Assembly: GCA_033763575.1 (NCBI GenBank)
Contig: JANRKF010000013.1
Span: forward strand, 81,396 to 145,395
Reading direction: 5' to 3'
Length of the DNA: 64,000 nucleotides
From: Alphaproteobacteria bacterium
GTDB lineage: Bacteria > Pseudomonadota > Alphaproteobacteria > Rickettsiales > SXRF01
Shown: positions 3,470 to 59,973 of the stretch, one piece after another
How the letters are laid out: each line of letters opens with the position of its first letter
How positions within the stretch are numbered: position 1 is the stretch's first letter
The notes under the pieces: model-generated
What the model was told of the DNA's origin: nothing
The model's database searches: none
What the model saw: the letters and a program-made list of their open reading frames with translations, nothing else
Program-made: the position numbers and the translations under genes

Positions 3470-3897
3470 AAATATCCGAGAACGGCCTCCTCCTCATCAA
3501 GCGGTTCGAGGGGTTCTCGGCCACTCCTTATCTATGCCCGGCGGGGAAGCTGACCATCGGCTACGGGCATGTCCTAGCCCCGCATTTATTGCGGGGTCCG
3601 GTGACAATAAAAGAAGCCGAAAAACTTCTGCTTGCGGATCTGGCCCCCGTCGAGGCCGCCATCAACCGGCTGGTCGTGGCTCCGCTCACCCAGAACCAGT
3701 TCGATGCGCTATGCTCGCTCACCTATAATATAGGGGTGGGGGCGTTTGCAAAATCGACGTTGTTGCGCTTACTGAACACCACCAACCACCAACCATCAAC
3801 CACCAACCAATTTTCCCGCTGGGTCTATGGGGGTGGAAAACGCCTCGCCGGGCTGGAAAAACGCCGCCGCGCCGAAATGGAATTGTTTCAGCAATAA
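3466..3897 (+). CDS. GH24 phage-type lysozyme (endolysin)
   Basis: MKISENGLLLIKRFEGFSATPYLCPAGKLTIGYGH... has the canonical E-(8)-D/C-(5)-T lysozyme N-terminus. ...FDALCSLTYNIG...RWVYGGGKRLAGLEKRRRAE matches the family C-terminus. Confidence 0.85.
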   Translation: MKISENGLLLIKRFEGFSATPYLCPAGKLTIGYGHVLAPHLLRGPVTIKEAEKLLLADLAPVEAAINRLVVAPLTQNQFDALCSLTYNIGVGAFAKSTLLRLLNTTNHQPSTTNQFSRWVYGGGKRLAGLEKRRRAEMELFQQ

Positions 3898-4057
3898 CCC
3901 TCCCCCCTTGAGGGGGAGGGAAGGGTGGGGGGTGGCGGAATAAATGAGAAACTGAAATAGGTAGCAACCACCCCTCCCCCAACCCCTCCCTCAAGGGGAG
4001 GGGGATATCTATAAAATACAACAAGATAATTATAACACCCCCCACCCCCCCGCCACC
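3898..4057. repeat. Composite nested palindromic repeat (family 1, CCCTCCCC-N4-GGGGAGGG hairpins)
   Basis: Hairpins ccctccccccttgagggggaggg (3898-3920) and cccctccctcaaggggagggg (3983-4004). gggtggggggtggcgg (3923-3938) is inverted at 4038-4057. Internal segments resemble the elements at 21824-21958 and 38966-39126. Confidence 0.7.
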
Positions 4058-4080
4058 TTCACATAACCGACACGCAATCT

Positions 4081-4122
4081 TCATCAAACTGTAACACACA
4101 AACGCTATTATTTTGCTATATT
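4081..4122 (+). promoter_or_regulatory. Shared promoter-like block, copy A (AAAC-TGTAACACAC...TATTAT)
   Basis: tcatcaaactgtaacacacaaacgctattatt is about 85% identical to 6870-6903. A TATTAT box lies 16 nt after the TGT, about 100 nt upstream of ATG 4189. Confidence 0.45.
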
Positions 4123-4188: not shown

Positions 4189-5595
4189 ATGGCTATATCA
4201 GCAGAAGAACTTGCAGCCTTATTTGAAAAAGGGCTTGGCAAAAAATCATTCGCCAAAATTATGGAAGCGGCGGTGGAAAACTCCACGCTGCTCGATTCAC
4301 TGACCGGCGCCCAAGAAGCTGCACTCAAGAAATTTGCTTCTAAGAATCCCGCTGCCGCCGCTGAAGCCTTTGGCAAACTCGCCGAAAGCCAAGCACGTAC
4401 TGCACTTGCAGAAGAACTTGGCGTAGACCCCGCAGCCGCTAAAAAAGAGGTAGACTGGGATTTAACACGCAAACCACGTGAATTTGAAGAAGCCATGACC
4501 GAGAGATACAAACGCATGGGCATCAAGAATTTTGCCGATGACATGGGCTTTGACAAGGAGAGCTTCGACGAGTCGGTTGGAAAACACGTCCGTATCACCG
4601 AAGACAAATATGGTGATGCCAAGGTCGAGCTTCGTAGAAAATCTGCCTTGGATGACATCAAGGGTGAGATTGACAAGTTACATCGGGATAAAGAGCGCCT
4701 GCTGGAGCGCGATCCATCAAAAACCAAGGAAATTGGCGCAATTGACAAGAAGCTTGAGGTGCTCGGTAAAAAAGCGCAGCGGGAAATTTATGACGCTCGC
4801 GAAAGTATCGATAAATACGCAAAGGGCCTTGATGATGCTCATGCGAAAAAAATGTATAAATTGGAAGATCGCCAACGTGAGATCACCGATGCTCTCGACT
4901 CTATCGACCACAAAGGCAAAAGAGGCGCTCGTAAAATCATTCTGGATGAAGAGCTGAAAAAATCCCTGTTGATTGAAACCGACCATGGACAATATCGCAT
5001 CGATGAAGATGGGGTAAGTTTGGCGGGTAGAAATAAATCTGGCAAGGCGGTTGAAGTAAAGGATTTAAAAGAGGGTCAAATCAAAGGCATTCGAGAAAAA
5101 GCCATAGAGCGTGTTGAACAGCGCTATGACGCTATCAGAGATGCTGCAAAAGAACGGCATGAGGTCGTACAAAAACACCTGACCAGCGCCTCTGAACATA
5201 TAAACGGCGAGATAAAAACAGAAGTCAGCACCAAAACCGGTATGGGCGAATGGACGGGTAAAACCGCTTCCAAGGTCACTCCGGGTGGGGTGCAGGCCGC
5301 CTCCAAAGGCATCATGACCGAAGTAGAATACGAAAAACTCAGCCCCACCGAGAAATTTGGCGCCAAAACCAAGGCGGTATTCAAAAGCGGCCCGATGGGC
5401 ATGGTGCAGACTGGCCTGATGGCGCTCGGCGGTATCGACGGTTTCCGCCGCATCATCGAGGGCGGCAGCGACATCATGTCGGGTGATCCTGAACGCCAGA
5501 ATGGCTGGAGCAAAGTCTTCATCGGCGTGCCGGAAGTGGCCGTTGCCGGATGGATCGGCCAGATGGGCGGGCGCAACAAAGTGCTCGGCGTATAA
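4189..5595 (+). CDS. Hypothetical K/E-rich coiled-coil protein with Gly-rich hydrophobic C-terminus (orphan)
   Basis: 468-aa ORF with GAGGAGAACGTTATG initiation context. Long charged helical repeats, then a C-terminal GPMGMVQTGLMALGGIDG...VAVAGWIGQMGG hydrophobic segment. No family recognised. Confidence 0.6.
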   Translation: MAISAEELAALFEKGLGKKSFAKIMEAAVENSTLLDSLTGAQEAALKKFASKNPAAAAEAFGKLAESQARTALAEELGVDPAAAKKEVDWDLTRKPREFEEAMTERYKRMGIKNFADDMGFDKESFDESVGKHVRITEDKYGDAKVELRRKSALDDIKGEIDKLHRDKERLLERDPSKTKEIGAIDKKLEVLGKKAQREIYDARESIDKYAKGLDDAHAKKMYKLEDRQREITDALDSIDHKGKRGARKIILDEELKKSLLIETDHGQYRIDEDGVSLAGRNKSGKAVEVKDLKEGQIKGIREKAIERVEQRYDAIRDAAKERHEVVQKHLTSASEHINGEIKTEVSTKTGMGEWTGKTASKVTPGGVQAASKGIMTEVEYEKLSPTEKFGAKTKAVFKSGPMGMVQTGLMALGGIDGFRRIIEGGSDIMSGDPERQNGWSKVFIGVPEVAVAGWIGQMGGRNKVLGV

Positions 5596-6825: not shown

Positions 6826-6869
6826 TAAATCATTTTATTTCCGAATGTCACAATTTTGTCGCACAGGAT

Positions 6870-6903
6870 TCACCGAACTGTAACACACGCCACGCTATAA
6901 TTG
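6870..6903 (+). promoter_or_regulatory. Shared promoter-like block, copy B (GAAC-TGTAACACAC...TATAAT)
   Basis: tcaccgaactgtaacacacgccacgctataatt. TATAAT at 6896-6901 lies 17 nt after the TGT. Extra tgtcacaa and tgtcgcaca boxes sit at 6846-6866. It is 55-80 nt upstream of ATG 6958. Confidence 0.5.
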
Positions 6904-6957: not shown

Positions 6958-9885
6958 ATGAGCGAAGAACCAACCAACAATGACAGCATGGCAGCAGACG
7001 CGCTTACACCCGCAAATACGTCAGCAGACAAAAAGGACGACGCCCCGGCGGATGCGCGGGAGGAAGAAGACCGCGCCGCAAGAGCCCGCGAGGAAGAAGC
7101 GAAAGCAGCGGCTGAGGAATTGGCGCGGGCGAATGCAATCCGACTTGCTATTGCACAAGCAACAAACAGCTTGTATTCATCGCCTGAATCACCTCCCGCC
7201 GATGCACCGCCGCTGCAGACACCAAAAGGACCTGGCCCCGTGATCGAACCACCCGAGGCCGGCGAACCTATCTCCGCGCTCGGATCGATTGCAAATGCCG
7301 AAGGACAAAAAGGCCCGCCTGTGCCTGGGTCACCGAAAGCCCCAACTTCAACCTCTGTGGCAAGCGAAGCAAGTAACGCAAAAATGGATACGGGGGAAGA
7401 ACGAAAACAGCCCGTAGCAAATACAAAAGACGCCCAAGAAGCCGCCGCACAGCTTGAGGCACAAACAAAAACGGCAGGGGCCGCCATCATCACCGATGCC
7501 GCCACCCGCGCCCGCGAGGCCGTGGCAGGGTTTTTCAAAAAACCGTATGAATCGACCGTGCCATCTCCTACCAGAGAAGAGCTTGCGGACATCCAAGTAG
7601 ATATGGCGAGAAAACTGACAGCCGCTGCAGAACGTGCAGAAGGCCCGCCAGCACCGGCATTGCCGGAGCCGCTTACGCCCGCATTGCCCAAATTTGATGA
7701 ATTGAATAACGCAGAATTACTGGATGAGATGCCGAAGCTGGCCGCTCGCCTTAACAGCACACAGGCACAGCTCGAAAACAATAAAAACAACGTAAGGACA
7801 TCGCCACAGCTCCAAGCTGACCTGGATGCCGCCAACGCAGCCTTCGAAGCCGGTATGGCAGAAGTGACCAAACGCGCCGGCGTGCTCTCGGAAAATCAAC
7901 TGCCGATTGTGCAAACGTCCCAAGCGAAAACCGTACAGAGTACGGGCTTCCGCTATGCGCTCCTTACCAATGATGCCAGCGTAAAAGCGCATCAGGACAC
8001 ACTGCTTACCCAGATGACCGAGCATGAGCAGTCACAACAACCTGTCTCCGCGCTTGCCCCCGTAGAAATAGCCGCAAATAATGCGATGATACCGGATGGC
8101 ATTCCACCTTCATCTCCAGCGCCCAAGACTCCAGCGGCGGAAGAATTACCGCCATCTCCTTTGCCGCCGCTGGCTCCTAAGGGAATTGCAACCTCGATTA
8201 AACCGCAACCGGCTACCGTCACTGCCGCCCAAGCGGCAGGCATGGGATTCGCTCCCGCCGCCAATGCAGCCATGCCGCCTGCACCTGCAGTGGTGGTGCC
8301 AGTAGTAACCACACCAACTGCGGCGGCCGTACCCCCAGCCGAGGCTGCACCTGCAACTCCGGCGCCTGCGCTGATTACCAAAATCACGGATGAGAATATC
8401 GACAAAATCACCCGTGCCGATCTGGAGCGGATGGGTCTGGAAGCACCGGAAGGCATGCTGCCGAGCGAACTGGCCGATAAAGACCTTATCAAAGCCGCCC
8501 GCGAAAATCTCGTATCGCACCTGCAGGAGAATATCAGCGAGCAATTGCTGCAAAAAGAGCGCCTGAACAGCGAGCTGAAAGACCTGACGGAAAACAACGC
8601 CTCGATCAGCAAGGAAGAAGCTGCAAGGGTTGCGGCGATCCGCGAGGAAATCAAGGCAATCGACGGAAAGGCCGATGCCGTCAAGGAAGTCTCAGGCATC
8701 AAACTGGAAGCCAGAAAGGTGAACGATGTCGATGCCATTTCCTACGAACTAAAGACCCATGGTAAATTAACGGGCGCGCTGGAAGCAAAACTTACATCCA
8801 TCAAAGAGACGGATATGGATGAACGGCTCGCCGTGCTCTCCGAGCAAGATCGCACAAAACTCAAAGAAGTGATCAATAAGGCGATTACGGACGAGAAGGG
8901 GAAAACCGATGCCGAGGGCGCGCCGAGCGTCAACCAGACGCGCCTGCTCGAACTGCAGAAACTGCAAACCAAGGTGGGGGCTGGCAGCAACACCAGCGAT
9001 TCCACCCAGGCGCGTGACCTTGCCAAGGCCCTGAAAGCCATGAGCGATCAGGAATTACAGGAATACATGGATAGCAGAAGCGCCAAGGAAGTGGGCGAAA
9101 TCGCCCAGGCGCTGCAAAACGAAGTGGATGCCGCGAACGGCGACCGCGAGAAAGGTGGCCTCTACCAACGGCAGCTGGATCGTATGCGCGCCATCAACCC
9201 AGCACTGCAGGTTAGCAACGCCAAGAAAGCGTCCGACTCCATAAACACCAACGTGACCGGTGAAAATGATGATGGGCTGGAAAATGCAAAAATCATCGAT
9301 GCGACCGAACTTGGGGAAGCCATTACAGGATTCAATACGGAACTGGCCAAATTAGACGGCACAAGCGGAATCAGCTCCGCCGATCTCCAGCTTCTGCTGG
9401 CCGAAGGCACTCGCAAGAATGGCCGCTTCCAATTGTCGGAAAAGGCGGTGGATGATCTGAAAGAGATGATCCCGCAAATGCAGAAAAGGGAAGCCGAAGC
9501 CGCCGCCGCAGCAGCAAAATCAGAAGCAGCTCAAGCAGACCGCACGGAAGACATGCGGATGCAACGCGCGATGGACCAATGGGTTGGCAGAGGTTCTCGT
9601 GGTAATGAGGACCTAAAAAATGCGCTCAATGCATTACGGGCGGATATGGTCGATGGCCGTGTTGGCGCTCACCGCGACCTCAATCAGGATGGAGAATTCG
9701 ATTACGAGGATCTGAGAAAATTTCTGGATGAATTTGCAAAACGCAATAACTCGGCAGAAGCCTATCAGGGTTATAATCTCGCCGGCATACAGCGCATCAT
9801 GGACAACACCCAACCCGTAGTCGAAGCGCCATCCACTCCGAATGAGCGCGGGACTGGCAACAGCGGTCCTGCTCGCCCACGCTGA
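6958..9885 (+). CDS. Large hypothetical protein, Pro/Ala-rich and coiled-coil (orphan, effector-like)
   Basis: 975-aa ORF with CAGGAGAATGTTATG context. Acidic N-terminus, PxxP-rich tracts (PPSSPAPKTPAAEELPPSPLPPLAPKG), long coiled coils, and an EF-hand-like loop DLNQDGEFDYEDL (9676-9714). No family recognised. Confidence 0.7.
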   Translation: MSEEPTNNDSMAADALTPANTSADKKDDAPADAREEEDRAARAREEEAKAAAEELARANAIRLAIAQATNSLYSSPESPPADAPPLQTPKGPGPVIEPPEAGEPISALGSIANAEGQKGPPVPGSPKAPTSTSVASEASNAKMDTGEERKQPVANTKDAQEAAAQLEAQTKTAGAAIITDAATRAREAVAGFFKKPYESTVPSPTREELADIQVDMARKLTAAAERAEGPPAPALPEPLTPALPKFDELNNAELLDEMPKLAARLNSTQAQLENNKNNVRTSPQLQADLDAANAAFEAGMAEVTKRAGVLSENQLPIVQTSQAKTVQSTGFRYALLTNDASVKAHQDTLLTQMTEHEQSQQPVSALAPVEIAANNAMIPDGIPPSSPAPKTPAAEELPPSPLPPLAPKGIATSIKPQPATVTAAQAAGMGFAPAANAAMPPAPAVVVPVVTTPTAAAVPPAEAAPATPAPALITKITDENIDKITRADLERMGLEAPEGMLPSELADKDLIKAARENLVSHLQENISEQLLQKERLNSELKDLTENNASISKEEAARVAAIREEIKAIDGKADAVKEVSGIKLEARKVNDVDAISYELKTHGKLTGALEAKLTSIKETDMDERLAVLSEQDRTKLKEVINKAITDEKGKTDAEGAPSVNQTRLLELQKLQTKVGAGSNTSDSTQARDLAKALKAMSDQELQEYMDSRSAKEVGEIAQALQNEVDAANGDREKGGLYQRQLDRMRAINPALQVSNAKKASDSINTNVTGENDDGLENAKIIDATELGEAITGFNTELAKLDGTSGISSADLQLLLAEGTRKNGRFQLSEKAVDDLKEMIPQMQKREAEAAAAAAKSEAAQADRTEDMRMQRAMDQWVGRGSRGNEDLKNALNALRADMVDGRVGAHRDLNQDGEFDYEDLRKFLDEFAKRNNSAEAYQGYNLAGIQRIMDNTQPVVEAPSTPNERGTGNSGPARPR

Positions 9886-14736: not shown

Positions 14737-15492
14737 ATGACCGAAACCCTTGAATCACTTCTGAACATGCTGTGCAAAACGGTGGCCAGGAGCCAGCAGA
14801 ACGCCCAGCAAACCGTGTATACGCTCACCGACGGGAAAGACGCCAAGCTGGCCTACGATCTGCTGGTGGCGTGCAATGCCGACGTCAAATATTTCGCCGA
14901 TGCAAATGCCGGAAATAAGCTCTATGTGCAGAATGCCTCGCTTGCCGCCTGCGCCGATAAAATCGCCGCTATTCTTGGCTCCGCCACCCTGTTTAAGCAG
15001 ATCAAAAACCTGCTCGACAGCACTGAAAATGCCGGAAACTATAGCCTCTCCTTCATCAACACCGCGCATGGCCGCCAGCTGACGCTGCTGTTGCCGCCGG
15101 AGAAATCGACGGCAAGCAACGCTCCTGCAGCGAAATCCGCCGCGCCGGAAGCCACCCAATCCCCCGTCATGACCTCCCCTCGGCCAAAAACACCAGTACT
15201 GCCCAAAGATGAGGATGCCCTGCTCGCCGGCCCTACGGTCGCCCGCAAAGCCATCCCAAAAAGCTTTAAAGCCAGTGCCACCGAGGAAGACCCGCTGAGA
15301 ACGCGCATCATGCTCTACTTAAGCAGCCGCGTTTTCACCAGCACAGCCTGGACCATGTTCGCATTGCTGATCCTCGCCGTGATTTTCAGCATCATCATCA
15401 CCATACGCGGCTTCCTCTGCCCGGATATCGCAGGCGTGCAGAATGTTCCGGCTTATTGCCCCCGTAAAATCGCCCCACAACAACAGGAATAG
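14737..15492 (+). CDS. Hypothetical tail-anchored membrane protein (orphan)
   Basis: 251-aa ORF with a single C-terminal TM (WTMFALLILAVIFSIIITI). Its stop lies 1 nt before the aroA ATG. No family recognised. Confidence 0.5.
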   Translation: MTETLESLLNMLCKTVARSQQNAQQTVYTLTDGKDAKLAYDLLVACNADVKYFADANAGNKLYVQNASLAACADKIAAILGSATLFKQIKNLLDSTENAGNYSLSFINTAHGRQLTLLLPPEKSTASNAPAAKSAAPEATQSPVMTSPRPKTPVLPKDEDALLAGPTVARKAIPKSFKASATEEDPLRTRIMLYLSSRVFTSTAWTMFALLILAVIFSIIITIRGFLCPDIAGVQNVPAYCPRKIAPQQQE

Positions 15493-15493
15493 C

Positions 15494-17470
15494 ATGACCG
15501 CCACTTCTTCCGCCTCCCAGCCCCTTTGCGGCGACGTGCATGTCGCGGGCGACAAATCCATCTCGCACCGCGCGCTGATGCTGGCCTCGCAGGCGCTCGG
15601 GCTCACCACCATCTCCGGCCTGCTCGAAGGCGAAGACGTGATGAATACCGCCGCCGCGCTCAAAAGCATGGGAGTAAATATCGAGAAAAATGGTAGCCAG
15701 TGGCGCGTCGAAGGCGTGGGCATCGGCGGCCTGCAGGAACCGCAGGGCGTGCTGGATATGGGCAATTCCGGCACCAGCACCCGCCTGCTGATGGGCCTCG
15801 TCACCCCCTACCCGTTCACCAGCTTCTTCACCGGCGACGATTCGCTGCGTTCGCGGCCGATGGCCCGCGTCATCACCCCGCTGGAGCAGGTCGGCGCGCA
15901 AATCACCACCCATAGCGGCGGCAGGCTGCCGCTTTCGGTGAAGGGCACCGACACCCCCAACGCCATCAGCTACACGCTGCCGGTGGCCTCGGCACAGGTG
16001 AAATCGGCGATTATCCTCGCCGCGCTCAATACACCCGGCACCACCACCGTCATCGAACCGCATGCCACCCGTGACCACACCGAAAACATGTTGGAATATT
16101 TCGATATCCCCATCACGCGTGGGCAGACCAAAGACGGCACCAACATCACCCTGACCGGACGGCCAAAACAAACCGCAAAAAATCGCGACATCGAAGTGCC
16201 GGGCGATCCCTCCTCCGCTGCGTTCCTGCTGGTGGCGGCGCTGATCGTGCCCGGATCGAATGTCATCGTGCGCAATATCTGCATGAACCCGCTGCGCACC
16301 GGCCTGTTTACAACCTTAAAGGAAATGGGCGCGGATCTTTCCTACGAGAATGAACGCACGCTCGGCGGCGAAAAACTGGCGGATATCCGGGTGCGTTATA
16401 GCGCGCTGAAGGCGGTAAATGTGCCCGCCGAACGCGCGCCCTCCATGATCGATGAATACCCAATATTGGCGGTGGCGGCGGCCTTTGCCAAGGGCGAGAG
16501 CGTAATGCACGGGCTTTCCGAACTGCGGGTGAAGGAAAGCGACCGGCTGAATGCCATCACCGAAAGCCTCACCGGCTGCGGTGTTACCGCCCGCGCCGAG
16601 GGCGATACGCTTTATGTCACCGGCGGGGTGCCCAAGGGCGGCACCACCATCGCCACCCGCCTCGACCACCGCATCGCCATGTCATTCCTGGTGATGGGTA
16701 TGGCGAGCAAAGAACCCGTCATCATCGACGATGCCAGCGCCATCAACACCAGCTTCCCGAATTTCATATCGCTGATGAACGGGCTGGGCGCCTCGATTGC
16801 CACCGACCGAGTACCGAGTACCGAGTACCGGGTACCGCTAGTCATCACCATCGACGGCCCCGCCGCCTCCGGCAAAGGCACCCTCGCCCGCCGCCTCGCC
16901 GAGCATTTCGGCATGGCCTATCTCGATACCGGCAGCCTGTATCGCGCCGTCGGGCTGAAACTGGTCTATAGCGACAAGGACCCGAACGACAAGGAAGCCG
17001 CGCTCAAAGCCGCCCGCTCCATCGATACCAATGATTTAAGCAACCCCCGCCTGCGGCAGGAACGTATCGGGAAAGCGGCATCCATCGTTTCCGCCTTCCC
17101 GGAAGTGCGGCAGGCGCTGCTCGATTACCAGCGGGAATTTGCTAAGACCCCCAACGGCGCGGTGCTCGATGGCCGGGATATCGGCACGGTGGTCTGCCCC
17201 GACGCGCCGATCAAATTCTTCATCACCGCCACCTTGTTCGCCCGCGCCAAGCGCCGTCACCGGGAGCTTTCCGGCGAAGGAATAGAGGTGGTGTTCGATT
17301 CGGTGCTGGAAGACCTGCGCGAGCGTGACGAACGCGACCAGAACCGCGCAGCCGCGCCGTTAGTACCCGCCGACGATGCGATTATCATCGATTCCTCCGC
17401 CGCCGACGCCAGCGAGATTTTCCAGCGGGCGCGGGAAATCGTGGAACTCCGGAAAGTCAGCGCTTCTTAG
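15494..17470 (+). CDS. aroA: Fused 3-phosphoshikimate 1-carboxyvinyltransferase / cytidylate kinase
   Basis: N-terminal ~437 aa is EPSP synthase (GDKSISHRALMLA, LDMGNSGTSTRLL, KESDRL, DHRIAMSF). After the linker RVPSTEYRVP comes a full Cmk (ITIDGPAASGKGTLARRLA...DGRDIGTVV...RDERD). One uninterrupted frame. Confidence 0.85.
   Translation: MTATSSASQPLCGDVHVAGDKSISHRALMLASQALGLTTISGLLEGEDVMNTAAALKSMGVNIEKNGSQWRVEGVGIGGLQEPQGVLDMGNSGTSTRLLMGLVTPYPFTSFFTGDDSLRSRPMARVITPLEQVGAQITTHSGGRLPLSVKGTDTPNAISYTLPVASAQVKSAIILAALNTPGTTTVIEPHATRDHTENMLEYFDIPITRGQTKDGTNITLTGRPKQTAKNRDIEVPGDPSSAAFLLVAALIVPGSNVIVRNICMNPLRTGLFTTLKEMGADLSYENERTLGGEKLADIRVRYSALKAVNVPAERAPSMIDEYPILAVAAAFAKGESVMHGLSELRVKESDRLNAITESLTGCGVTARAEGDTLYVTGGVPKGGTTIATRLDHRIAMSFLVMGMASKEPVIIDDASAINTSFPNFISLMNGLGASIATDRVPSTEYRVPLVITIDGPAASGKGTLARRLAEHFGMAYLDTGSLYRAVGLKLVYSDKDPNDKEAALKAARSIDTNDLSNPRLRQERIGKAASIVSAFPEVRQALLDYQREFAKTPNGAVLDGRDIGTVVCPDAPIKFFITATLFARAKRRHRELSGEGIEVVFDSVLEDLRERDERDQNRAAAPLVPADDAIIIDSSAADASEIFQRAREIVELRKVSAS
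16807..16837 (+). repeat. Heptanucleotide tandem repeat (ccgagta x3, ccgggta, ccg) at the aroA-cmk junction
   Basis: ccgagtaccgagtaccgagtaccgggtaccg read directly. It encodes the linker PSTEYRVP. Confidence 0.85.
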
Positions 17471-18754: not shown

Positions 18755-19570
18755 TTATCCGGGTAACGGACCTGATGCCCTACTAGCAGCATCCATCAAG
18801 GCTTGATCCGCCAACCTGTCGTAGGATGGCATGGACTCATGTGGCGGCCACTCACCATATGTTTCGTACTCCATACCTAAAGCACCCATCAGTTTAACGA
18901 GCTTGCTTTCGTCCACGACATCCACAAAAACTTCCGCCCCTCGCGTTCTAGCAACAGCTCCCGGCACCTGATGTGTTACGATCGCATGGTTGATGCTTGC
19001 AGCCATTTCCGAGGCGGCATCCGCATCGCCGGTTTGAATTAAGGCCTGAAAAAAAGCGGGGCGCAACTTTTTTTCACCCCTGTATAATTCACTGATACGA
19101 GAAAAAACAAAGCGATCCTTGGCGGCTTTCAATATTTCTTCCCAATTCTCAGGAATTTCAGGCTTATCACCAAGCCTACCGTCCTCCGCCATTTTGCATA
19201 GGCGAGTATAGAAACCCTCACTCTTAACCACGGCCTCGGCATGTGGAACACCTGGAACGGCTCCCGGAATGACCGTGCTGAGCCTTAACTTTCCCCCATA
19301 AACATCTTGAACCGTGTCAAATCCGCGATCGACAAATTCTTTTTTTATTAATTCCGCAATCTCAGCGCTTCTAGCATTGGCTACCTTTAGTTTACTTGCT
19401 GGAAGAAAAGTATTCACCGTGTCGCCGACGCTGTCAATTTTCATATCTATGCGCGTACCAAAATTACTGTCAGACGTTCTAGGCCTAGGGACCATTACTG
19501 TGTCCACCGCAATATTAACAACCGCCCCTTTGAAATTGATAACAACCGTTTTATCATCTCTATTCGCCAT
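18755..19570 (-). CDS. Hypothetical protein (orphan, AT-richer)
   Basis: Start is moved to MANRDDK (ATG 19570), which has a GGGGGG RBS. 271 aa, no family recognised. Confidence 0.5.
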   Translation of the reverse strand: MANRDDKTVVINFKGAVVNIAVDTVMVPRPRTSDSNFGTRIDMKIDSVGDTVNTFLPASKLKVANARSAEIAELIKKEFVDRGFDTVQDVYGGKLRLSTVIPGAVPGVPHAEAVVKSEGFYTRLCKMAEDGRLGDKPEIPENWEEILKAAKDRFVFSRISELYRGEKKLRPAFFQALIQTGDADAASEMAASINHAIVTHQVPGAVARTRGAEVFVDVVDESKLVKLMGALGMEYETYGEWPPHESMPSYDRLADQALMDAASRASGPLPG

Positions 19571-19695
19571 ACGCTGCCCCCCTAAAAAAATCGATTTGAA
19601 TCCTCGCCGTTTATTTATCAATCTATATAAATTATAAATTTTAAAAATTCTTTAATAAAAAAACTTATGCTTGCAGTTAAAGTGAATTAAAAGGT

Positions 19696-19729: not shown

Positions 19730-19954
19730 ATGACAACTATCAAACTTTCCGATGATCTGGTGAACGATGCCAAGCGCTATGCAGCGGTGTTCAGCCGCTC
19801 CGTGCCCAAACAAATCGAATATTGGTCGCGCATTGGAAAAATCGTCGAGGAAAATCCGGATTTGCCCTACGAATTCATTCAGGAGCTTTTGCTTGCATTA
19901 GAGGATGACGACATTACTCCATTTGAATTTTCTAAACCAAAACGCAAAAAATGA
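19730..19954 (+). CDS. ParD-like type II antitoxin
   Basis: MTTIKLSDDLVNDAKRYAAVFSRSVPKQIEYWSRIGKIVEENPDLPYEFI resembles the ParD_like family. ATGA overlap with the downstream toxin. Confidence 0.7.
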   Translation: MTTIKLSDDLVNDAKRYAAVFSRSVPKQIEYWSRIGKIVEENPDLPYEFIQELLLALEDDDITPFEFSKPKRKK

Positions 19955-20229
19955 TCCTCGAACAAACTTCTTATTTTGCCAAAGCAATGAAGAAGTTGCG
20001 CGCCAATCAACGTGCATACGCTGAAAAGGCAATTCAGGACATAATGCATAATCCTTCGATAGGCGTAGCAAAGAAAGGAGACCTTGACGGGGTACGAGTC
20101 TATAAATTTTATATGTTAAAACAGCTAACCTTATTATCATACACTTATACCCATGAGCGCCTTACATTGCGTTTAATTTCACTGGGCAGCCATGAGAATT
20201 TTTACCGCGACCTGAAAAAATCCCACTGA
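19951..20229 (+). CDS. RelE/ParE-family type II toxin
   Basis: 92 aa, ...KKGDLDGVRVYKFYMLKQLTLLSYTY...LISLGSHENFYRDLK. Size, pattern and coupling to the antitoxin fit the RelE/ParE superfamily. Confidence 0.7.
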   Translation: MILEQTSYFAKAMKKLRANQRAYAEKAIQDIMHNPSIGVAKKGDLDGVRVYKFYMLKQLTLLSYTYTHERLTLRLISLGSHENFYRDLKKSH

Positions 20230-24030: not shown

Positions 24031-24114
24031 GTCATTCCCGCGAAGGCGGGAATCCACTCGCAAAGAATAAATTGTTTTTATAAGCGAATCGACTCCCGCC
24101 TACGCGGGAGTGAC
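24031..24114. repeat. Family-2 variant palindromic element (GTCATTCCCGCGAAGGCGGGAATCC...CCCGCCTACGCGGGAGTGAC)
   Basis: Two internal hairpins (cccgcgaaggcggg, cccgcctacgcggg) with GTCAT/GTGAC termini, between rph and rdgB. Confidence 0.7.
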
Positions 24115-36669: not shown

Positions 36670-37812
36670 CTATAAAAGCTCCTCATACACCGCCAGCGTT
36701 TTCTCACACATGGTATCGAGTGAAAAACGCTCCGCCTGCTTGCGCGCATCGCGGGCGATGTGCTGCTGCATCGTTTCATCCAGCCCCATCACGTTCTCGA
36801 TCGCGGCGGCGAGCGCCCCCACATCACCCGGCGGCACCAGAAGACCTGTTTCCCCGTGAATCACCGTTTCCTGAGGCCCGCCGTGGCTGGTGGCGATCAC
36901 CGGCTTGCCCATCGCCTGCGCTTCCAGCACCACGCGGCCAAACGCCTCCGGCTCAATCGATGTGGCAACCACCACCCGCGCCAGCATATAGGCCTCGGTG
37001 ATATGCTGCGTATGCTCGGCAAAGCGCACATGCTCCTCCAGCCCCAGCTCGGTGATGAGCGACTCCAGCTCGCCGCGATAGCTCCCGCCTTTTTTATCGT
37101 CGCCTAAAATCACCGCGAAGAAATGACGGTGCGGCAGCGCGGCGAGTGCGCGCAGGAACACGTCCTGCCCTTTCCAGCGGGTGATGCGGCCGGGAAATAA
37201 AATCACCGGCAGCTCCATCGGCAGCCGCCATTCCTTGATCAGCGCGTCCATCCGCTGGTGCGAAAATAAATCGGGGGTGAATAAATTCAGATCCACCCCG
37301 CGATGGATGATGCGGATATTGGCCGGATCGACCGCATAATTCGCCTTGATATGCTCGGCGATGAAATTGGAAATGGCGATCACCCGCTCGCCCTTCACCA
37401 TCACGCTGTTATAGCGGTGCTTGAAACGGTTCTGGATGCCGTAGGTGCCATGGAAGGTGGTGACGAAACGGCAGCCGGTCTTATAAGCCGCAAGCCACGC
37501 GCACCATGCCGGCGCACGGCTTCTGGCATGCACGATATCCACCCCATGCTCGCGGATGATGCCCACCAGCGCACGCGCATTGCGCCACACGGTGAAGGGG
37601 TTTTTGCTATCGAGCGGCAGGGTGATATGCTCGGCGCCAAGGCGAAACAGCTGATACATCATCTTGCCGCCGCTGGAGGCGACCAGCGCCCGTCCGCCCG
37701 CCTGCTGGATGGCACGGGCGATTTCCACCGTACCGCGCTCTACCCCGCCGCTGGAAAGAGCGGGCAGCACTTGCAGAATGACAGGGGGCTTTTTATCGTG
37801 CATGGGGTACAT
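36670..37812 (-). CDS. Glycosyltransferase family 4
   Basis: ILQVLPALSSGGVERGTVEIA... and a C-terminal EX7E region EPEAFGRVVLEAQAMGKPVIATSHGGPQETV. The start is set at the ATG with a GGAGG RBS. Confidence 0.8.
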   Translation of the reverse strand: MYPMHDKKPPVILQVLPALSSGGVERGTVEIARAIQQAGGRALVASSGGKMMYQLFRLGAEHITLPLDSKNPFTVWRNARALVGIIREHGVDIVHARSRAPAWCAWLAAYKTGCRFVTTFHGTYGIQNRFKHRYNSVMVKGERVIAISNFIAEHIKANYAVDPANIRIIHRGVDLNLFTPDLFSHQRMDALIKEWRLPMELPVILFPGRITRWKGQDVFLRALAALPHRHFFAVILGDDKKGGSYRGELESLITELGLEEHVRFAEHTQHITEAYMLARVVVATSIEPEAFGRVVLEAQAMGKPVIATSHGGPQETVIHGETGLLVPPGDVGALAAAIENVMGLDETMQQHIARDARKQAERFSLDTMCEKTLAVYEELL

Positions 37813-37854
37813 ATACACCTCCCCCCATCAAGTGCAAGAGGGGCATGGATAGGC

Positions 37855-38172: not shown

Positions 38173-38429
38173 ATGTCTGCTTCCATCCCAAGGCGTGGCA
38201 GCAATATGTCGAATGGCAGGTTTATGACAAGCAGGTGCTCAAAAAAATCAACCACCTCCTCAAAGACATCCAGCGCTCCCCATTCGAGGGTATCGGCAAG
38301 CCCGAACCCCTCGCCTATGAGTTTTCCGGTTTCTGGTCGCGGCGCATCACCGATGAGCACAGGCTGGTTTATACTATCGATGACGGCAACATTATCATCG
38401 TGCAATGCCGTTATCATTATGATGGCTGA
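38169..38429 (+). CDS. yoeB: Txe/YoeB-family toxin
   Basis: ...AWQQYVEWQVYDKQVLKKINHLLKDIQRSPFEGIGKPEPL...GFWSRRITDEHRLVYTIDDGNIIIVQCRYHY(DG). ATGA overlap with yefM. Confidence 0.9.
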   Translation: MNVCFHPKAWQQYVEWQVYDKQVLKKINHLLKDIQRSPFEGIGKPEPLAYEFSGFWSRRITDEHRLVYTIDDGNIIIVQCRYHYDG

Positions 38430-39386
38430 ATGATGGCTGAATTTCTTGAAACCCCCGCCCATCCGCTCGCCTACCGCACACAGGAAGGCAGCGGCCCCAC
38501 GGTGATGTTCTGCACCGGCTTCATGTCGGACATGGCGGGCACCAAGGCCGAAACGCTTTCCACCCATTGCGCCGCACGCGGGCAATCCTTCATCCGCTTC
38601 GATTATTCCGGCCATGGCCAGTCCGGCGGCGATTTCATGGACGGCACCATCGGCCAGTGGAAACGCGATACGCTGGCGGTGCTGGACGAACTAACCGAAG
38701 GGCCGGTGGTGCTGGTGGGCTCCAGCATGGGCGCATGGCTGGCCCTGCTCGCGGCGATGGAAAGGCCCGAACGCATCAAAGCCCTCATCGGCATTTCCGC
38801 CGCGCCGGATTTCACCGAACGGCTGATCTGGCAGAAGCTCGCCGCCGCCCAGCAGCAGGAATTGCTGGAAAAGGGGGTGTTTTACGCGCCATCCTGCTAT
38901 GGTGAAGCGCCCTACCCCATCACCCGCAGGCTGATTGAGGAGGCGCGGTCGCACCTGCTTATTACTCCCTCCCCATCCGCCTGCGCGCAAGCGCTGCGGC
39001 GGGACAAGTTAGGGGGAGGGTCGGGGCTGCGCCCCCCGAAGCCACTGGACATAGGGGGGTGGAGGCATCCACGCTCGGATGGAGAAAATAATGCCCCCCT
39101 CCTAACCTCCCCCCTACAGGGGGAGGATATTCCCATCCACCTGCTACACGGCACAAGGGATGAGGATGTGCCGGTGGAAATCGCCCATTTGCTGGTTGAA
39201 AGGTTAAAATCGTCATCCTGCGGCCCACAACGTGGGAGCACAGTATCCATGGATTCTGCGCAGCCTTCCGGCTCGCAGAATGACAATACAAGAATACAAC
39301 TCGCCCTGATTGAGGGCGGCAACCACCGCTTAAGCGAACCCGAAGATTTGCGCTTGCTTTGCCGTACCGTTTGTGATATTAGTTAA
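38430..39386 (+). CDS. Alpha/beta-fold hydrolase carrying two in-frame repeat-element insertions
   Basis: GSSMGAW nucleophile elbow, HGTRDEDVP (Asp) and GGNHRLS (His). The frame stays open across elements at 38966-39126 and 39212-39284. Confidence 0.75.
   Translation: MMAEFLETPAHPLAYRTQEGSGPTVMFCTGFMSDMAGTKAETLSTHCAARGQSFIRFDYSGHGQSGGDFMDGTIGQWKRDTLAVLDELTEGPVVLVGSSMGAWLALLAAMERPERIKALIGISAAPDFTERLIWQKLAAAQQQELLEKGVFYAPSCYGEAPYPITRRLIEEARSHLLITPSPSACAQALRRDKLGGGSGLRPPKPLDIGGWRHPRSDGENNAPLLTSPLQGEDIPIHLLHGTRDEDVPVEIAHLLVERLKSSSCGPQRGSTVSMDSAQPSGSQNDNTRIQLALIEGGNHRLSEPEDLRLLCRTVCDIS
38966..39126 (-). mobile_element. Family-1 palindromic element inside the hydrolase CDS (inverted relative to 21824-21958)
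   Basis: Its reverse complement aligns by eye with 21829-21954 at about 85% identity. The terminal hairpin loop holds an extra ~33-bp palindrome (ccgcctgcgcgcaagcgctgcggcgg). Confidence 0.8.
39212..39284. repeat. Family-2 variant element inside the hydrolase CDS (GTCATCCTGCG...CTCGCAGAATGAC)
   Basis: gtcatcctgcggcccacaacgtgggagcacagtatccatggattctgcgcagccttccggctcgcagaatgac. It has the same termini and central atccatggat core as 13373-13464. Confidence 0.7.
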
Positions 39387-39873: not shown

Positions 39874-39934
39874 CAATCCGTGGCTAGCAGCTAAAAGTGG
39901 CGGCAATTTCAACCGCTAACCAATGGCCTGCCTC

Positions 39935-41116
39935 ATGAAACCTACTACCAAACCCAATAATCCCTGTTTTTCCTCCGGCCCATGCGCCAAGCGTCCCGGC
40001 TGGAGCGTCGATGCGCTGAAAGACGCCGCGCTTGGCCGCTCGCACCGCGCTAAAATCGGGAAAAACAAACTCGCCGCAGTCATCGACCAGAGCAAAGCCA
40101 TCCTCGGCATGCCGGAAGATTGGGTGCTGGGCATCGTCCCCGCCTCCGACACCGGCGCGATTGAGATGGCCATGTGGTCGCTGCTGGGCAGCCGCGGGGT
40201 GGATGTATTCGCGTGGGAAAGCTTCGGTTCCACCTGGGCATCCGACTGCAAAAAACAACTGAAACTCACCGACCTCAATATTTACGAGGCGGGCTACGGC
40301 AAGCTGCCCGACCTCGGCAAATACAATAAATCGCGTGATGCGATCTTCACCTGGAACGGCACCACCAGCGGCGTGCGCGTGCCCAATGCCGATTGGATTG
40401 CCGACGACCGCGAAGGCCTCGTCATCTGCGATGCCACCAGCGCCGTCTTCGCCATGAACATCGCATGGAACAAGCTCGACGTGGTGACATGGAGCTGGCA
40501 GAAAGTATTGGGTGGTGAAGGCGCGCACGGCATGATCGCGCTTTCCCCACGCGCCGTAAAACGCCTGGAGGAATACACCCCGGCATGGCCGATGCCCAAA
40601 ATCTTCCAACTGACCAAACCTAATAAGGAAGGTGGGGGCGGTAAACTCATCGAGGGTATTTTCAAGGGCGAAACCATCAACACCCCGTCCATGCTCTGCG
40701 TGGAAGATGCGCTGGATGGCCTGAGCTGGGCGGCCTCGGCAGGCGGCATCAGCGGGCTGGTGAAACGCTCGGAAGCCAACCTTGCCGCACTCGCCGCATG
40801 GGTGGAGAAAACCGCGTGGGTGGATTTCCTGGCCGAAGATAAAGCCACCCGCAGCTGCACTTCCATCTGCCTGAAAATCGTCGACCCGGCCTATCAGAAA
40901 CTCGCACCCGACGCGCAAGCCGAGCTTGCCAAGAAACTGGCCTCGCTGCTGGAAAAAGAAGGCGTGGCCTATGATATCGGCGCCTATCGAGACGCACCGG
41001 CGGGCCTGCGTATCTGGGGCGGCGCTACGGTGGAAACCAAGGACATCGAAACCCTCACCCCATGGCTCGACTGGGCATGGGCCGAGGCAAGCGCCGGACT
41101 GAGCAAGGCAGCGTAG
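39935..41116 (+). CDS. serC: Phosphoserine aminotransferase (alphaproteobacterial long type)
   Basis: [24 protein letters not shown]...GRSHR...[19 protein letters not shown]...[10 protein letters not shown]. Confidence 0.88.
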
Positions 41117-41119
41117 ACC

Positions 41120-41401
41120 ATGGGCGCAGATATTCATTCTTATGAATTTATCATGCGCCTGAAGTCGTTACCATGCGTTGAGTCGCTTTATCTGTTTGGT
41201 TCGCGTGCCCGCACCGACCACCGGGAACGTTCGGATATTGACATTGCGGTGAAATTACGCGCCAATACTGCGGAGGATTGGCGCAAGGTCATGGATATCA
41301 TTGAGACTGCGGATACATTGCTTGAGATTGACTGCGTGAATCTGGACGAAGCGGAGGAAGCGCTTCGTCAAAAAATCGAAACGCAGGGAACATCGTTATG
41401 A
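41120..41401 (+). CDS. MNT-type nucleotidyltransferase (HI0073-like antitoxin)
   Basis: LYLFGSRARTDHRERSDIDIAV is the GSx10DxD minimal nucleotidyltransferase motif. It starts 3 nt after the serC stop. Confidence 0.8.
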   Translation: MGADIHSYEFIMRLKSLPCVESLYLFGSRARTDHRERSDIDIAVKLRANTAEDWRKVMDIIETADTLLEIDCVNLDEAEEALRQKIETQGTSL

Positions 41402-50636: not shown

Positions 50637-50900
50637 ATGCATACACGCGATACTATTTTGCAGCAAGCCATGGCTTTGACGCCGGCCGATCAGGCTTATC
50701 TGGTGCTTGCGCTGGAAGATCACCTTGCGGACCAAATTCCTGCGGCAGTGGACGCGGGGAACGGTATAAGCGGCGCGGCTTTTCTCGCGGAACTTGAACG
50801 GCGCTCGCACGCCTATAAAGCGGGAAAGATGGATGCACACCCGGCGGGGGACGTCATGGCCGAATTACGCACACGTCAGGCGACTGAGAACGTGCAGTGA
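50637..50900 (+). CDS. Putative addiction-module antitoxin (Unstab_antitox-like)
   Basis: 87 aa, ...ILQQAMALTPADQAYLVLALEDHL...AFLAELERRSHAYKAGKMDAHPAGDVMAELR resembles the 'putative addiction module component' family. GTGA overlap with the toxin. Confidence 0.65.
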   Translation: MHTRDTILQQAMALTPADQAYLVLALEDHLADQIPAAVDAGNGISGAAFLAELERRSHAYKAGKMDAHPAGDVMAELRTRQATENVQ

Positions 50901-53589: not shown

Positions 53590-55044
53590 TTAGCTAAGGA
53601 AACGTCCGCCATTATCCATGGGAATGCCCGGCACTTGAACGCCATCCGGGTTCGTATCCATCTTTGTTGCACCCTGCCCCTTAAAATTCACGGCGTTGGC
53701 CGCCAGTGCTTTCACATCCGTGTCCAGGGGGTCATTGGAAGCGGTGAACTGTTCATATTTTATCTGAGCAAAATGATCTTGCAGCGCCCTCTGGCTATTA
53801 TCACCGGGATATATAACCCTTTTGTTCATTCTCTCTATCTGCGCATCCGACAACTGCATACCCTCCGGCAATTGCATGGAGAAGCGCCCCGGATATTCCT
53901 CCACCGGCCTTAATTTATTGCTGACTTTACCAACATGCACCAGCGGCTTGCCATTAATCACCGGCGCACCCAGCACTACCGTACGAGTTGCTTCATCCCA
54001 GCCGACGATGTGCAGCTTCGGTGGCGGAGCAAAGAACGGGCTGTTAAGTGCAGTGCCGGTATTCGTCATCACATCAGGATTTTCAAGCGCTTCGCTGGCA
54101 GCCTGATAAGATGCATGATGACGCTGTGTGACCGAATGCATCGCATGCTCGTAACGCGCCGCGCGGTCTGCCGGCGCAAGGGGGCTGCTAAAACCCGCCC
54201 CCGAATCCTGGTAGCTGGTCATGCCCATACGGTCGCGCTGGTTAAGTATCTCCATTTTTCTTGCACGTTCCAACCACACATTGCCGCCGGGATTGCTGCG
54301 CGCCCAACCACGGAGTTTTTCCTGTTCCAAATCTTCACGCAACCCCGGCAGCGTATCGTGATTGGTTAGTCGCGCCATTACCCGTGGATCATGGATATCA
54401 TGTCCGTGATACTGCGTGCCGGTCAGGTGCGAAGTGCTGGCGCGCAGGGCGACATTACGTTCCATTTCCTCAAGCCTAAGTTCCGATTCGATATTTTGCC
54501 GGAAACCACTGACGGCACGATTGATTCGGACGCGATCAGGATTTTCCTCTCTCGTGGCGGGGAAATTTCCGCCTTGCGCAACGGCATCCAGCTCCGGCTC
54601 AGTGATGGCATTTTTTTCCACCACTTGCAAAAGCTTGCCCCAGCAAGCTGCGCGTTGCATGCCGTGATCCGCCGCCGCCGTGTGCTCGGCGTCAAGATAT
54701 TGCGAGCGCTCACGACGCATTGGATTGAAATCGGCAAAAATATTTTCTTCCGGCAATTGCGGCATGGCGCCTTTTTCACGCGTCGCCCACTGCTCCTCCG
54801 CCTGCTGCGCGCCCTGCATATCCGCCATTAATTTATTGAACGCCGCCTGCGACATCATGCTGATTTTCTGCTCCTGCTCGGCGTCCTCAAAACGACGTGT
54901 TTCTTTGGAATCCGGGGAATAAACGGCGGGGAACACTGTGGCATAGCGTAGCGCCCCGCCCTGTTTCATATCCATAGCGAATTTATGCACGGTGACGTCA
55001 CCGTCATCTCCCGCGACCGCAATGTTGAACATCACTTCATTCAT
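53590..55044 (-). CDS. Hypothetical 484-aa protein (orphan, effector-like)
   Basis: Long ORF with GGAGAGGTTATG context and the shared promoter-like block upstream. No TM or signal peptide, and no family recognised. Confidence 0.6.
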   Translation of the reverse strand: MNEVMFNIAVAGDDGDVTVHKFAMDMKQGGALRYATVFPAVYSPDSKETRRFEDAEQEQKISMMSQAAFNKLMADMQGAQQAEEQWATREKGAMPQLPEENIFADFNPMRRERSQYLDAEHTAAADHGMQRAACWGKLLQVVEKNAITEPELDAVAQGGNFPATREENPDRVRINRAVSGFRQNIESELRLEEMERNVALRASTSHLTGTQYHGHDIHDPRVMARLTNHDTLPGLREDLEQEKLRGWARSNPGGNVWLERARKMEILNQRDRMGMTSYQDSGAGFSSPLAPADRAARYEHAMHSVTQRHHASYQAASEALENPDVMTNTGTALNSPFFAPPPKLHIVGWDEATRTVVLGAPVINGKPLVHVGKVSNKLRPVEEYPGRFSMQLPEGMQLSDAQIERMNKRVIYPGDNSQRALQDHFAQIKYEQFTASNDPLDTDVKALAANAVNFKGQGATKMDTNPDGVQVPGIPMDNGGRFLS

Positions 55045-55097
55045 AACCTCTCCGCTCGATGCGTCGTGTTTTACTTACAGGGTCATTATAACCCATT

Positions 55098-55129
55098 TAT
55101 ATAAAGTAATTATGTGACAGTTTTATGAA
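55098..55129 (-). promoter_or_regulatory. Shared promoter-like block, copy C (AAAC-TGTCACATA...TATATA)
   Basis: The minus strand reads ttcataaaactgtcacataattactttatata. The first 18 nt match copies A and B, with the same 16-nt spacing to a TATATA box. TTATAAT lies further downstream, about 55-85 nt before the ATG. Confidence 0.45.
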
Positions 55130-55264
55130 TATTGTGTGATGACCCGCCACATTCCGGGCGGAATTAGAGAAAAAACAGAGAATTCAGCCGGTTGTTAATA
55201 TATTTTCTGCGCAGAAACCAAAAAACCAGTTGTATCCGGGGCGTGATTTCCTTAAAGATTAGGC

Positions 55265-56281: not shown

Positions 56282-56290
56282 CAAGGTATC

Positions 56291-59505: not shown

Positions 59506-59591
59506 TAATATCAACGCCCTAGCCACATACGTGACCGAGCCGAGGAGGCTCCATCGCAAGCAGGTTTGCAGCGGGAGTAGAATGAAGCCGG

Positions 59592-59616
59592 GTGTCACAC
59601 AAACGTCACAATAAAT
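59592..59616 (+). promoter_or_regulatory. Shared promoter-like block, copy D (TGTCACACAAACG)
   Basis: gtgtcacacaaacgtcacaataaat. The core is identical to copy A apart from a 2-nt deletion. It lies about 55-80 nt upstream of ATG 59672. Confidence 0.35.
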
Positions 59617-59671
59617 CGGTAACATTTTCCTGCTAATATGCTATGCTGTAACCATAAAACTGGAGCATACG

Positions 59672-59959
59672 ATGAAACGTTTTACCATTCCCTGTGATTT
59701 CAGCGGCACCAAATATCCGTTCCATGTCTATGTCGGGGAGCCGCACCCGGCGCGGCATCCGCTGCAGAACCAGGCGTGGTGGCTCTCGTCGATCCGCGGC
59801 GGCACCATCCCGCAGGACGTGATGGACAGTTTCGAGCGCCTCCACAAAATCGCCATTGAGAATAACGTATCGTTCGAGGATCTGTGTGTCTATGCGCTGG
59901 GCACGGCGGCGGCGGAAGAAGGCAAAAAAGTCGAAGTGCAGGACAACGCGACCAGCTAA
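59672..59959 (+). CDS. DUF2610-like small protein
   Basis: MKRFTIPCDFSGTKYPFHVYVGEPHPARHPLQNQAWWLSSIRGGTIPQDVMDSFERLHKIAIENNVSFEDLCVYALG. From memory this matches the Rickettsiales-type DUF2610 pattern; not verified. Confidence 0.5.
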   Translation: MKRFTIPCDFSGTKYPFHVYVGEPHPARHPLQNQAWWLSSIRGGTIPQDVMDSFERLHKIAIENNVSFEDLCVYALGTAAAEEGKKVEVQDNATS

Positions 59960-59973
59960 CATGATGGCACCTT

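Follow-up and report, generated by a model that had tools for sequence, protein, structure and literature searches.

Pho boxes, the binding sites of the response regulator PhoB, have a textbook anatomy, in which direct repeats with an 11-nt period replace the –35 element of the promoter and end 10 nt from the –10 box. In Escherichia coli the PhoB consensus is CTGTCAT-A(AT)A(TA)-CTGT(CA)A(CT), and the sites bound in chromatin immunoprecipitation (ChIP) include GATTCACAAATCTGTCAC and TTTTCATAAATCTGTCAT (PMC3465305); the box has been defined as two 11-nt units (PMC4415409), and ChIP followed by sequencing (ChIP-seq) gave for Caulobacter PhoB the motif YGTCAYR, repeated after an A-rich spacer of 4 nt (bioRxiv 10.1101/741363). 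Here we describe four promoters, called sites A to D, that carry repeats of this kind in a 64,000-nt stretch (the window) of contig JANRKF010000013.1 of an Alphaproteobacteria bacterium, in which gene-transfer-agent tail genes, an aroA-cmk fusion, flagellar export genes and GapR are alphaproteobacterial. The element itself, in its form a textbook Pho box, is known; new are the targets, namely a gene of the DUF2610 family with its partner, a vir-homologue type IV secretion operon in relatives and strict orphans, and the clade in which they are found.

Comparable arrangements are known for other regulators. In Legionella pneumophila and Coxiella burnetii the OmpR-family regulator PmrA recognises a tandem repeat directly upstream of the –10 box and controls, jointly with type IV secretion genes, many effector genes specific to these lineages; its regulon was reportedly described by Zusman and co-workers in 2007 and in later work on Coxiella, and the motif is said to have served in these bacteria to predict effectors. 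VirG of Agrobacterium is a PhoB-like response regulator activating the type IV secretion (virB) and effector operons. PhoB itself controls virulence in vacuolar pathogens, as for SPI-2 of Salmonella and pldA of uropathogenic E. coli, and phosphate limitation, acting via PhoR/PhoB, is an intracellular cue for secretion-system or virulence genes (PMC11276888).

The first-pass annotation of the window had noticed, upstream of four genes or operons, a shared promoter-like block and had proposed that it marks a regulon. The four strings in which it saw the block are all present; the TGT of the block lies, as described there, 16 nt (A and C) or 17 nt (B) upstream of TATTAT, TATATA and TATAAT, respectively, and the blocks begin 108 (A), 88 (B), 85 (C) and 80 nt (D) upstream of the ATGs, within the range of 80-110 nt that it gave, whereas the identity of A and B, put at about 85% over 33 nt, is by our count about 81% over 32 aligned positions. 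When the four upstream regions were aligned and then read by hand, the block, real as it is, proved to form only the promoter-proximal 3' part of a longer array of CTGTCAT-like 7-nt direct repeats, with an 11-nt period that A, B and C keep exactly (Table 1); the Pho box in it had gone unrecognised. At site D the earlier alignment was out of register: TGTCACACA belongs to an upstream box (59592-59609), and the half-site next to the –10 box is CGGTAAC (59617-59623). In all four promoters the array ends 10 nt (A, C and D) or 11 nt (B) before a sigma-70-type –10 box, and a scan with the sigma-70 consensus found no –35 partner for any of these boxes; the suggestion that a transcription-factor site overlaps the promoter at the place of the –35 element is thus supported. 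The extended –10 of site D agrees with the clade consensus TGn-TAnnnT; an additional –10-like TATATT is found at 4117-4122 in site A, and a TATAAT lies 7 nt further downstream of the TATATA of site C, for which the predicted start is near 55091 on the minus strand.

These features are those of the PhoB regulon of E. coli, Caulobacter and Sinorhizobium, in which at least two CTGTCAT-like repeats of 7 nt, separated by an A/T-rich spacer of 4 nt, form an array that takes the place of the –35 element and ends 10 nt upstream of the –10 box; in E. coli pstS the boxes are likewise arranged in tandem. The agreement with the E. coli consensus is 11/14 for A, 10/14 for B (proximal box, –10 in place), 11/14 for C (counted by hand) and 10/14 for D, and single sites nearly coincide with sequences verified by ChIP in E. 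coli, which are close to site B (GATTCACCGAACTGTAAC) and site C (TATTCATAAAACTGTCAC). The blocks therefore appear, by sequence and by position, to be sites of the Pho-box type: 7-nt repeats with a 4-nt spacer are found in the place of the –35 element, about 10 nt from the –10 box, and the element is conserved at orthologous promoters.

The recurrence of the block in the window was then compared with chance. Its core, AACTGTMACAYA, occurs 3 times with at most one mismatch against 0.26 expected (0 of 100 shuffles). A position weight matrix built from 52 sites upstream of DUF2610 genes of other species, with no training site from the window, gave its top scores in the window to site A (24.4 bits), site C (20.1 bits) and site D (17.3 bits, in the proximal register), while the best score in each of 100 simulated windows had a mean of 5.4, a 95th percentile of 13.4 and a maximum of 16.5. 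A, C and D thus score above every one of the simulations, and the shared block is real and non-random.

Relatives provide independent evidence. We collected DUF2610 loci from 80 species, most of them labelled Rickettsiales bacterium or Alphaproteobacteria bacterium, and scored 79 upstream regions using only the published E. coli consensus, taking as controls their opposite strands and 1454 pieces drawn at random from these loci. At least 11 of the 14 consensus positions were matched in 73% of the DUF2610 upstream regions, against 1.3% of the opposite strands and 1.3% of the random pieces, and at least 12 in 48%, against 1.3% and 0%, respectively. Most of these regions have a canonical Pho box with a –10 box exactly 10 nt downstream, and the best reach 14/14, as in CTGTCATcaatCTGTCAT-aatctgcgcg-TATAGT. 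Positions that played no part in the selection are also kept, such as the A after the box (94%), the final T of the –10 box (92%) and the TGn before it, and our reading of the upstream regions found no conservation of the intergenic sequence flanking the box. The three-half-site layout of site D recurs in the closest relative with comparable G+C content (L011 among our loci, whose homologue of the 810-aa protein is 66% identical) as TTGTCATaaaaCCGTCATaataaatCAGTAAC, 10 nt and TAGTAT. A second class of DUF2610 promoters, present in eight species (L014, L016, L017, L020, L028, L030, L040 and L041), has the box 21-23 nt from the –10 box, about one helical turn beyond the usual 10 nt; an activator site can shift in this way and a –35 element cannot. 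Strong purifying selection maintains the element at the orthologous promoters of a large clade, and the repeats, the fixed distance to the –10 box, the lack of a –35 element and this conservation in about 80 related species sustain the proposal of a regulon defined by a shared cis-element.

The same element is found at a type IV secretion operon. A scan of 1.19 Mb of related loci with the matrix returned about 65 sites upstream of DUF2610 and a few others, two of which precede virB3 (L085 and L062); Pfam recognises there virB3, virB4 and three virB6 paralogues in a row, an order that we take to be typical of the vir-homologue type IV secretion system of Rickettsiales. We then fetched 49 virB3 loci from metagenomes, of which 47 upstream regions could be scored for the full architecture, that is a pair of 7-mers with an 11-nt period, an A behind them, 8-10 nt and TAnnnT. 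It is present in 21 of the 47, compared with 0/47 on the opposite strand and 0/771 control pieces. The virB3 consensus, YTG(T/C)(C/A)A(C/A)-AAAA-CTG(C/A/T)AA(C/T)-A...TGc-TAnnnT, has the same frame as the DUF2610 sites and the same invariant G and A positions. Over about 1.58 Mb scanned, strict matches are almost confined to the upstream regions of DUF2610 and virB3, with about five exceptions that precede a small secreted protein, a glycosyltransferase and orphans, and most of the remaining matrix matches in relatives precede charged proteins without family assignment. The element marks a coherent gene set. No type IV secretion genes lie within the window itself, which taken alone shows only four ordinary activator-dependent promoters, and our literature search found no paper on PhoB control of type IV secretion in Rickettsiales.

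Table 1. Repeats, –10 boxes and genes of the four promoters of the window, with a doubtful fifth match
Feature	Positions (strand)	Sequence elements	Remarks
Site A, 7-mers	4056..4095 (+)	CCTTCAC 4056, CCGACAC 4067, TCTTCAT 4078, CTGTAAC 4089	putative proximal Pho box 4078-4095, TCTTCATcaaaCTGTAAC
Site A, –10	4106..4111 (+)	TATTAT	10 nt past box; predicted start ~4118
Site A, gene	4189..5595 (+)		468 aa, strict orphan, SFX19_03950, no Pfam family
Site B, two adjacent boxes	6845..6884 (+)	ATGTCAC 6845, TTGTCGC 6856, GATTCAC 6867, CTGTAAC 6878	GATTCACcgaaCTGTAAC, plus second box upstream
Site B, –10	6896..6901 (+)	TATAAT	11 nt past proximal box; predicted start ~6908
Site B, gene	6958..9885 (+)		975 aa, strict orphan, low-complexity, Ala/Pro/Glu-rich, no Pfam family
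Site C, 7-mers	55114..55142 (–)	TCATCAC 55142-55136, TATTCAT 55131-55125, CTGTCAC 55120-55114	putative proximal box 55131-55114; TATTCATaaaaCTGTCAC
Site C, –10-like	55098..55103 (–)	TATATA	10 nt past box
Site C, gene	53590..55044 (–)		484 aa, strict orphan, SFX19_04270, no Pfam family
Site D, half-sites	59592..59623 (+)	GTGTCAC 59592, acaa, ACGTCAC 59603, 7 nt, CGGTAAC 59617-59623	GTGTCACacaaACGTCAC, plus third half-site CGGTAAC
Site D, extended –10	59631..59639 (+)	TGc TAATAT (TAATAT 59634-59639)	10 nt past CGGTAAC; predicted start ~59646
Site D, operon	59672..63409 (+)		DUF2610 59672-59959; 810-aa partner 59974-62406; 333/360-aa protein 62408 or 62327 to 63409
Doubtful fifth match	19639..19671 (+)	TTTTAAAaattCTTTAAT, 9 nt, TATGCT	17.5 bits; upstream of two-gene module 19730-20229

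As regards the protein that binds these sites, the motif seems nearer to PhoB than to any other family compared. Among the motifs of other alphaproteobacterial OmpR-family regulators, that of ChvI consists of GCC repeats 11 nt apart and that of CenR is TGA-N8-TGA, and neither box fits any of the four promoters; the CtrA box (TTAA-N7-TTAAC) has a single match in the window, at 39382, outside the four promoters. The vir box of VirG, TNCAATTGAAAY, is unlike this element; it occurs in none of the four promoters, and its 26 matches in the window, versus 35.8 expected, show no enrichment. We infer the identity of the regulator, as we do the inducing signal and the function of the targets: a PhoB orthologue responding to phosphate limitation is, in our view, the probable answer. 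By analogy with PhoB of E. coli and Caulobacter, the regulator would be a response regulator of the OmpR/PhoB family, whose phosphorylated dimers would bind the repeats head-to-tail in the place of the –35 element and recruit RNA polymerase; under phosphate limitation it would be switched on via PhoR and the Pst transporter. Binding would be needed to recruit the polymerase, and the genes would therefore be silent until the regulator is phosphorylated. The regulon would comprise, in the uncultured Rickettsiales-like clade, the operon of DUF2610 and the 810-aa protein, the virB3-virB4-virB6 operon in many members and lineage-specific orphans, its members in the window being the 468-, 975- and 484-aa proteins and a deamidase-like protein. 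What is established for the PhoB regulon of the model bacteria, namely binding by PhoB and dependence on phosphate, is here predicted from sequence.

Several observations weigh against a PhoB orthologue. Some of them concern the sites: in A, B and C the distal half-site reads TTCAY, unlike those of the PhoB regulon, and is without the G that relatives almost invariably have, the –10 box of site C ends in A, without the final T, and site B fails the combined matrix score at its proximal box because this box starts with GAT, although its distal box reaches 16.1 bits when boxes only are scored and its proximal half-site and –10 box are perfect. In the genome loci, as distinct from the metagenomic ones, only 2 of 6 usable virB3 upstream regions have the site, and the virB3 sites vary at a T that is invariant in the DUF2610 sites, so that two related regulators are possible. 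Others concern the gene content. None of the targets is a classical phosphate-scavenging gene, the type IV secretion operon, the conserved operon of unknown function and the strict orphans standing here in the place of the phosphate genes of the PhoB regulon. No phoB, phoR, pstSCAB or phoU was found in the window (Pfam) or in the 138 fetched loci, tblastn with approximate E. coli PhoB, PstB and PhoU queries recovered only receiver domains and one OmpR-family fragment, and there is no complete OmpR-family regulator in the window or the fetched loci. Finally, PhoR-PhoB is absent from Rickettsia and Ehrlichia, and present in Candidatus Aquarickettsia (PMC6863919, PMC11276888).

Some of these points would be explained by a dedicated paralogue of the OmpR/PhoB family with PhoB-like specificity, which would respond to a host or envelope cue and act as master switch of type IV secretion and its substrates, functionally much like PmrA in Legionella and Coxiella or VirG in Agrobacterium; we regard it as the main rival, possible if rather unlikely. 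It would agree with a target set made up of a type IV secretion operon, an unknown operon adjoining it in some genomes and orphan effector-like proteins, with no phosphate scavenging, and with the lack of PhoB in several Rickettsiales; moreover, the virB3 half-sites CTGCAAC and CTGAAAC deviate from the PhoB core at its T, and the fragment just mentioned, the C-terminal winged-helix part of an OmpR-family response regulator truncated by the edge of one metagenomic locus (L099, 213-479), lies 5.5 kb upstream of a box-bearing virB3. However, the best sites of relatives are perfect Pho boxes, such as the 14/14 site quoted above, these sites agree with the PhoB motifs of E. coli and Caulobacter even in the A-rich spacer and in the purine that follows, the ChvI and CenR motifs differ, and no gene for such a paralogue was seen in the window or the fetched loci. 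The deviating half-sites, too, are compatible with PhoB, as that of E. coli also binds the variants TGCAAC and TGAAAC (PMC3465305).

The remaining explanations fare far worse. The TGTNACA motif could be a palindromic operator of a dimeric repressor or activator of another family (CRP/FNR- or LuxR-like), TGTAACA and TGTCACA being 7-bp palindromes and 6 of the 7 copies in the 64 kb being intergenic, in a window with 13.7% intergenic DNA; nevertheless, the palindrome results incidentally from CTGT(A/C)AC and the conserved A (purine) after it, the same position in relatives reads CTGTCAT-A or CGGTAAT-A, which are not palindromic, conservation tracks the 11-nt direct repeats, and one copy, a TGTAACA at 46690 that is flanked by a tRNA gene and by the 3' end of a gene, has neither a repeat partner nor a gene start. 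This reading is very unlikely, and the same can be said of the absence of any shared regulator, in which the similarity would reflect copied promoter DNA and chance matches in AT-rich promoters. A and B do agree at some uninformative positions as well (ACAC past the box, CGC ahead of the –10 box), and the E. coli consensus combined with a –10 box gives 3 matches in the window versus 1.8 expected by simulation; but all matches are correctly oriented and lie 80-110 nt upstream of start codons, the scores of the foreign matrix exceed all 100 simulations, and the element, unlike the intergenic sequence around it, is conserved at orthologous promoters in about 80 species. An alternative sigma factor had been the other option of the first-pass annotation, and the block would then be its –35/–10 pair, for instance of the extracytoplasmic function (ECF) type. 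A conserved sequence does stand in the –35 place, and the AAC directly before TGT recalls an ECF –35. The reading is hardly credible, given that the '(A/G)AAC' consists of the C of CTGT and the A-rich spacer before it, the –10 box is the usual sigma-70 TAnnnT and often has an extended TGn, 2-4 tandem units with an 11-nt period make up the upstream element, and eight relatives have the box at 21-23 nt from the –10, a distance impossible for a –35 element.

The first-pass annotation had described the genes behind the four promoters as unrelated orphan loci. This is correct for A, B and C, whose products are strict orphans: the 468-, 975- and 484-aa proteins matched only themselves in searches of 5.8 billion proteins or 1.84 billion representative proteins (the latter for the 975-aa protein), and pairwise BLAST showed no similarity among them and the other orphans of the window. 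It is not correct for site D, where the DUF2610/810-aa operon is conserved across the clade. The 468-aa protein, on record only as 'MAG: hypothetical protein SFX19_03950 [Alphaproteobacteria bacterium]', is charged and rich in Lys and Glu, and no signal peptide was seen on reading its sequence. In the operon of site D, Pfam recognises DUF2610 (1.9e-35) and Gln_deamidase_2 (5e-9), the latter in the third gene (333/360 aa, glutamine-deamidase-like), which is species-specific and has no counterpart in the fetched related loci. As the orphans share the box with the type IV secretion operon and the DUF2610 operon, the 468-, 975- and 484-aa proteins, together with the deamidase-like protein, are candidate secreted or host-interaction proteins. 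The third-position G+C content of the box-served orphans is 0.52-0.59, versus 0.7-0.8 for the housekeeping genes of the window, which fits recent acquisition or fast evolution. Many open reading frames (ORFs) of the window without family assignment carry no box, e.g., those at 18755-19621, 39884-41137 and 41821-42579. The orphan of site C shares its 220-nt intergenic region with divergently transcribed genes (55265-57847) for a PAS-domain protein and for a hybrid histidine kinase that carries a receiver domain of its own; no DNA-binding regulator lies near them.

The 810-aa protein is homologous to the product of the gene following DUF2610 in nearly every related locus, and the gene order NDUS4-like protein, DUF2610 and a familyless protein of 500-800 aa is kept in about 80 species (window 59209-62406; loci L001-L089). 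Homologues of the DUF2610 protein number in the hundreds at 65-95% identity, the best among species representatives being 94% identical, and such identity among relatives is unusually high for a protein of 95 aa. The AlphaFold model of DUF2610, of fair confidence (pLDDT 79.5), consists of two strands and three helices and has no significant fold match to solved structures; a sequence search of solved structures gave nothing for DUF2610, the 810-aa protein or the deamidase-like protein, and no paper on the function of DUF2610 was found in the literature. In two loci the DUF2610 operon stands tail-to-tail with the virB3-virB4-virB6 operon and its three virB6 paralogues (L085, 12568-19662; L062, 11907-19146). 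In L003 and L021 three tandem DUF2610 genes lie beside a VirD4-like coupling protein of 1084 aa (L003, 9244-13609); the contig with the three DUF2610 genes is labelled Schlesneria, which may be a binning error or gene transfer.

The nearest functional analogue of this gene set is the PmrA regulon. There, an OmpR-family repeat next to the –10 box links lineage-specific effectors with the secretion apparatus; here, the architecture is found at 21 of the 47 virB3 operons and at orphans that are candidate effectors. The elements differ, the PmrA consensus being cTTAATatT-N2-cTTAATatT versus CTGTCAT-N4-CTGTMAY here, and so do the systems, a Dot/Icm type IVB apparatus of gammaproteobacteria in one case and the vir-homologue type IVA apparatus of Rickettsiales in the other. 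Compared with the control of virulence by PhoB in Salmonella and uropathogenic E. coli, the link proposed here is drawn purely from sequence, and in uncultured alphaproteobacteria. Tentatively, we suggest that in this large uncultured Rickettsiales-like clade the vir-homologue type IV secretion system might have the Pho-box regulon as its master switch, with phosphate limitation, or a signal derived from PhoB, as the cue of host interaction; the DUF2610/810-aa pair might then be a component or a substrate of the system, and the box a tag of effectors, including the 468-, 975- and 484-aa orphans, as PmrA boxes are in Legionella and Coxiella. Should the regulon prove real, it would tie together DUF2610 with its partner of 500-800 aa, a Rickettsiales-type type IV secretion operon and species-specific orphans, which had no prior link. 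Its box is also a simple tag by which candidate effectors of uncultured Rickettsiales-like bacteria could be predicted. The element places strict orphans in a regulatory context, something difficult to achieve otherwise where a genome is available from a metagenome only. It also bears on a question raised for Ehrlichia, which lacks PhoB/PhoR, namely how phosphate depletion is sensed and coupled to type IV secretion (PMC11276888).

Other matches in the window were considered and set aside. The fifth match of Table 1, at 19639, lies in AT-rich DNA and lacks the nearly invariant G in both half-sites, and is probably no real site. A box-only match at 38213-38230 (minus strand) falls inside an 86-aa ORF on the other strand. 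A GT4 glycosyltransferase gene (36670-37818) was considered as a Pho-box gene of lipid remodelling under phosphate starvation, an idea taken from PMC4796936, and the nearby match proved to be intragenic.

Some further features of the window deserve mention. Between a lysozyme gene and the promoter of site A (3894-4061) there are G/C-rich imperfect inverted repeats with arms of 38 nt (74% complementary) and of 26 nt, built from CCCCTCCC/GGGAGGGG runs, which may be a terminator or an element like a repetitive extragenic palindrome (REP). The palindromic unit TCCCGCG(A/T)AGGCGGGA occurs twice (24036-24051 and 24094-24109) in the 107-nt gap between the genes for RNase PH and a Ham1-family protein, and the two units look like a small repeated extragenic palindrome. 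Three small modules resemble toxin-antitoxin systems, i.e., a pair of 74 and 92 aa (19730-20229), which the weak AT-rich matrix match at 19639 precedes, the 86-aa ORF mentioned above (38173-38433), YoeB-like by eye and without a match in Pfam, and a ParE-family toxin (50897-51205). Finally, the aroA-cmk fusion is a single ORF of 675 aa (15443-17470), in which EPSP synthase (aroA) is joined to cytidylate kinase (cmk).

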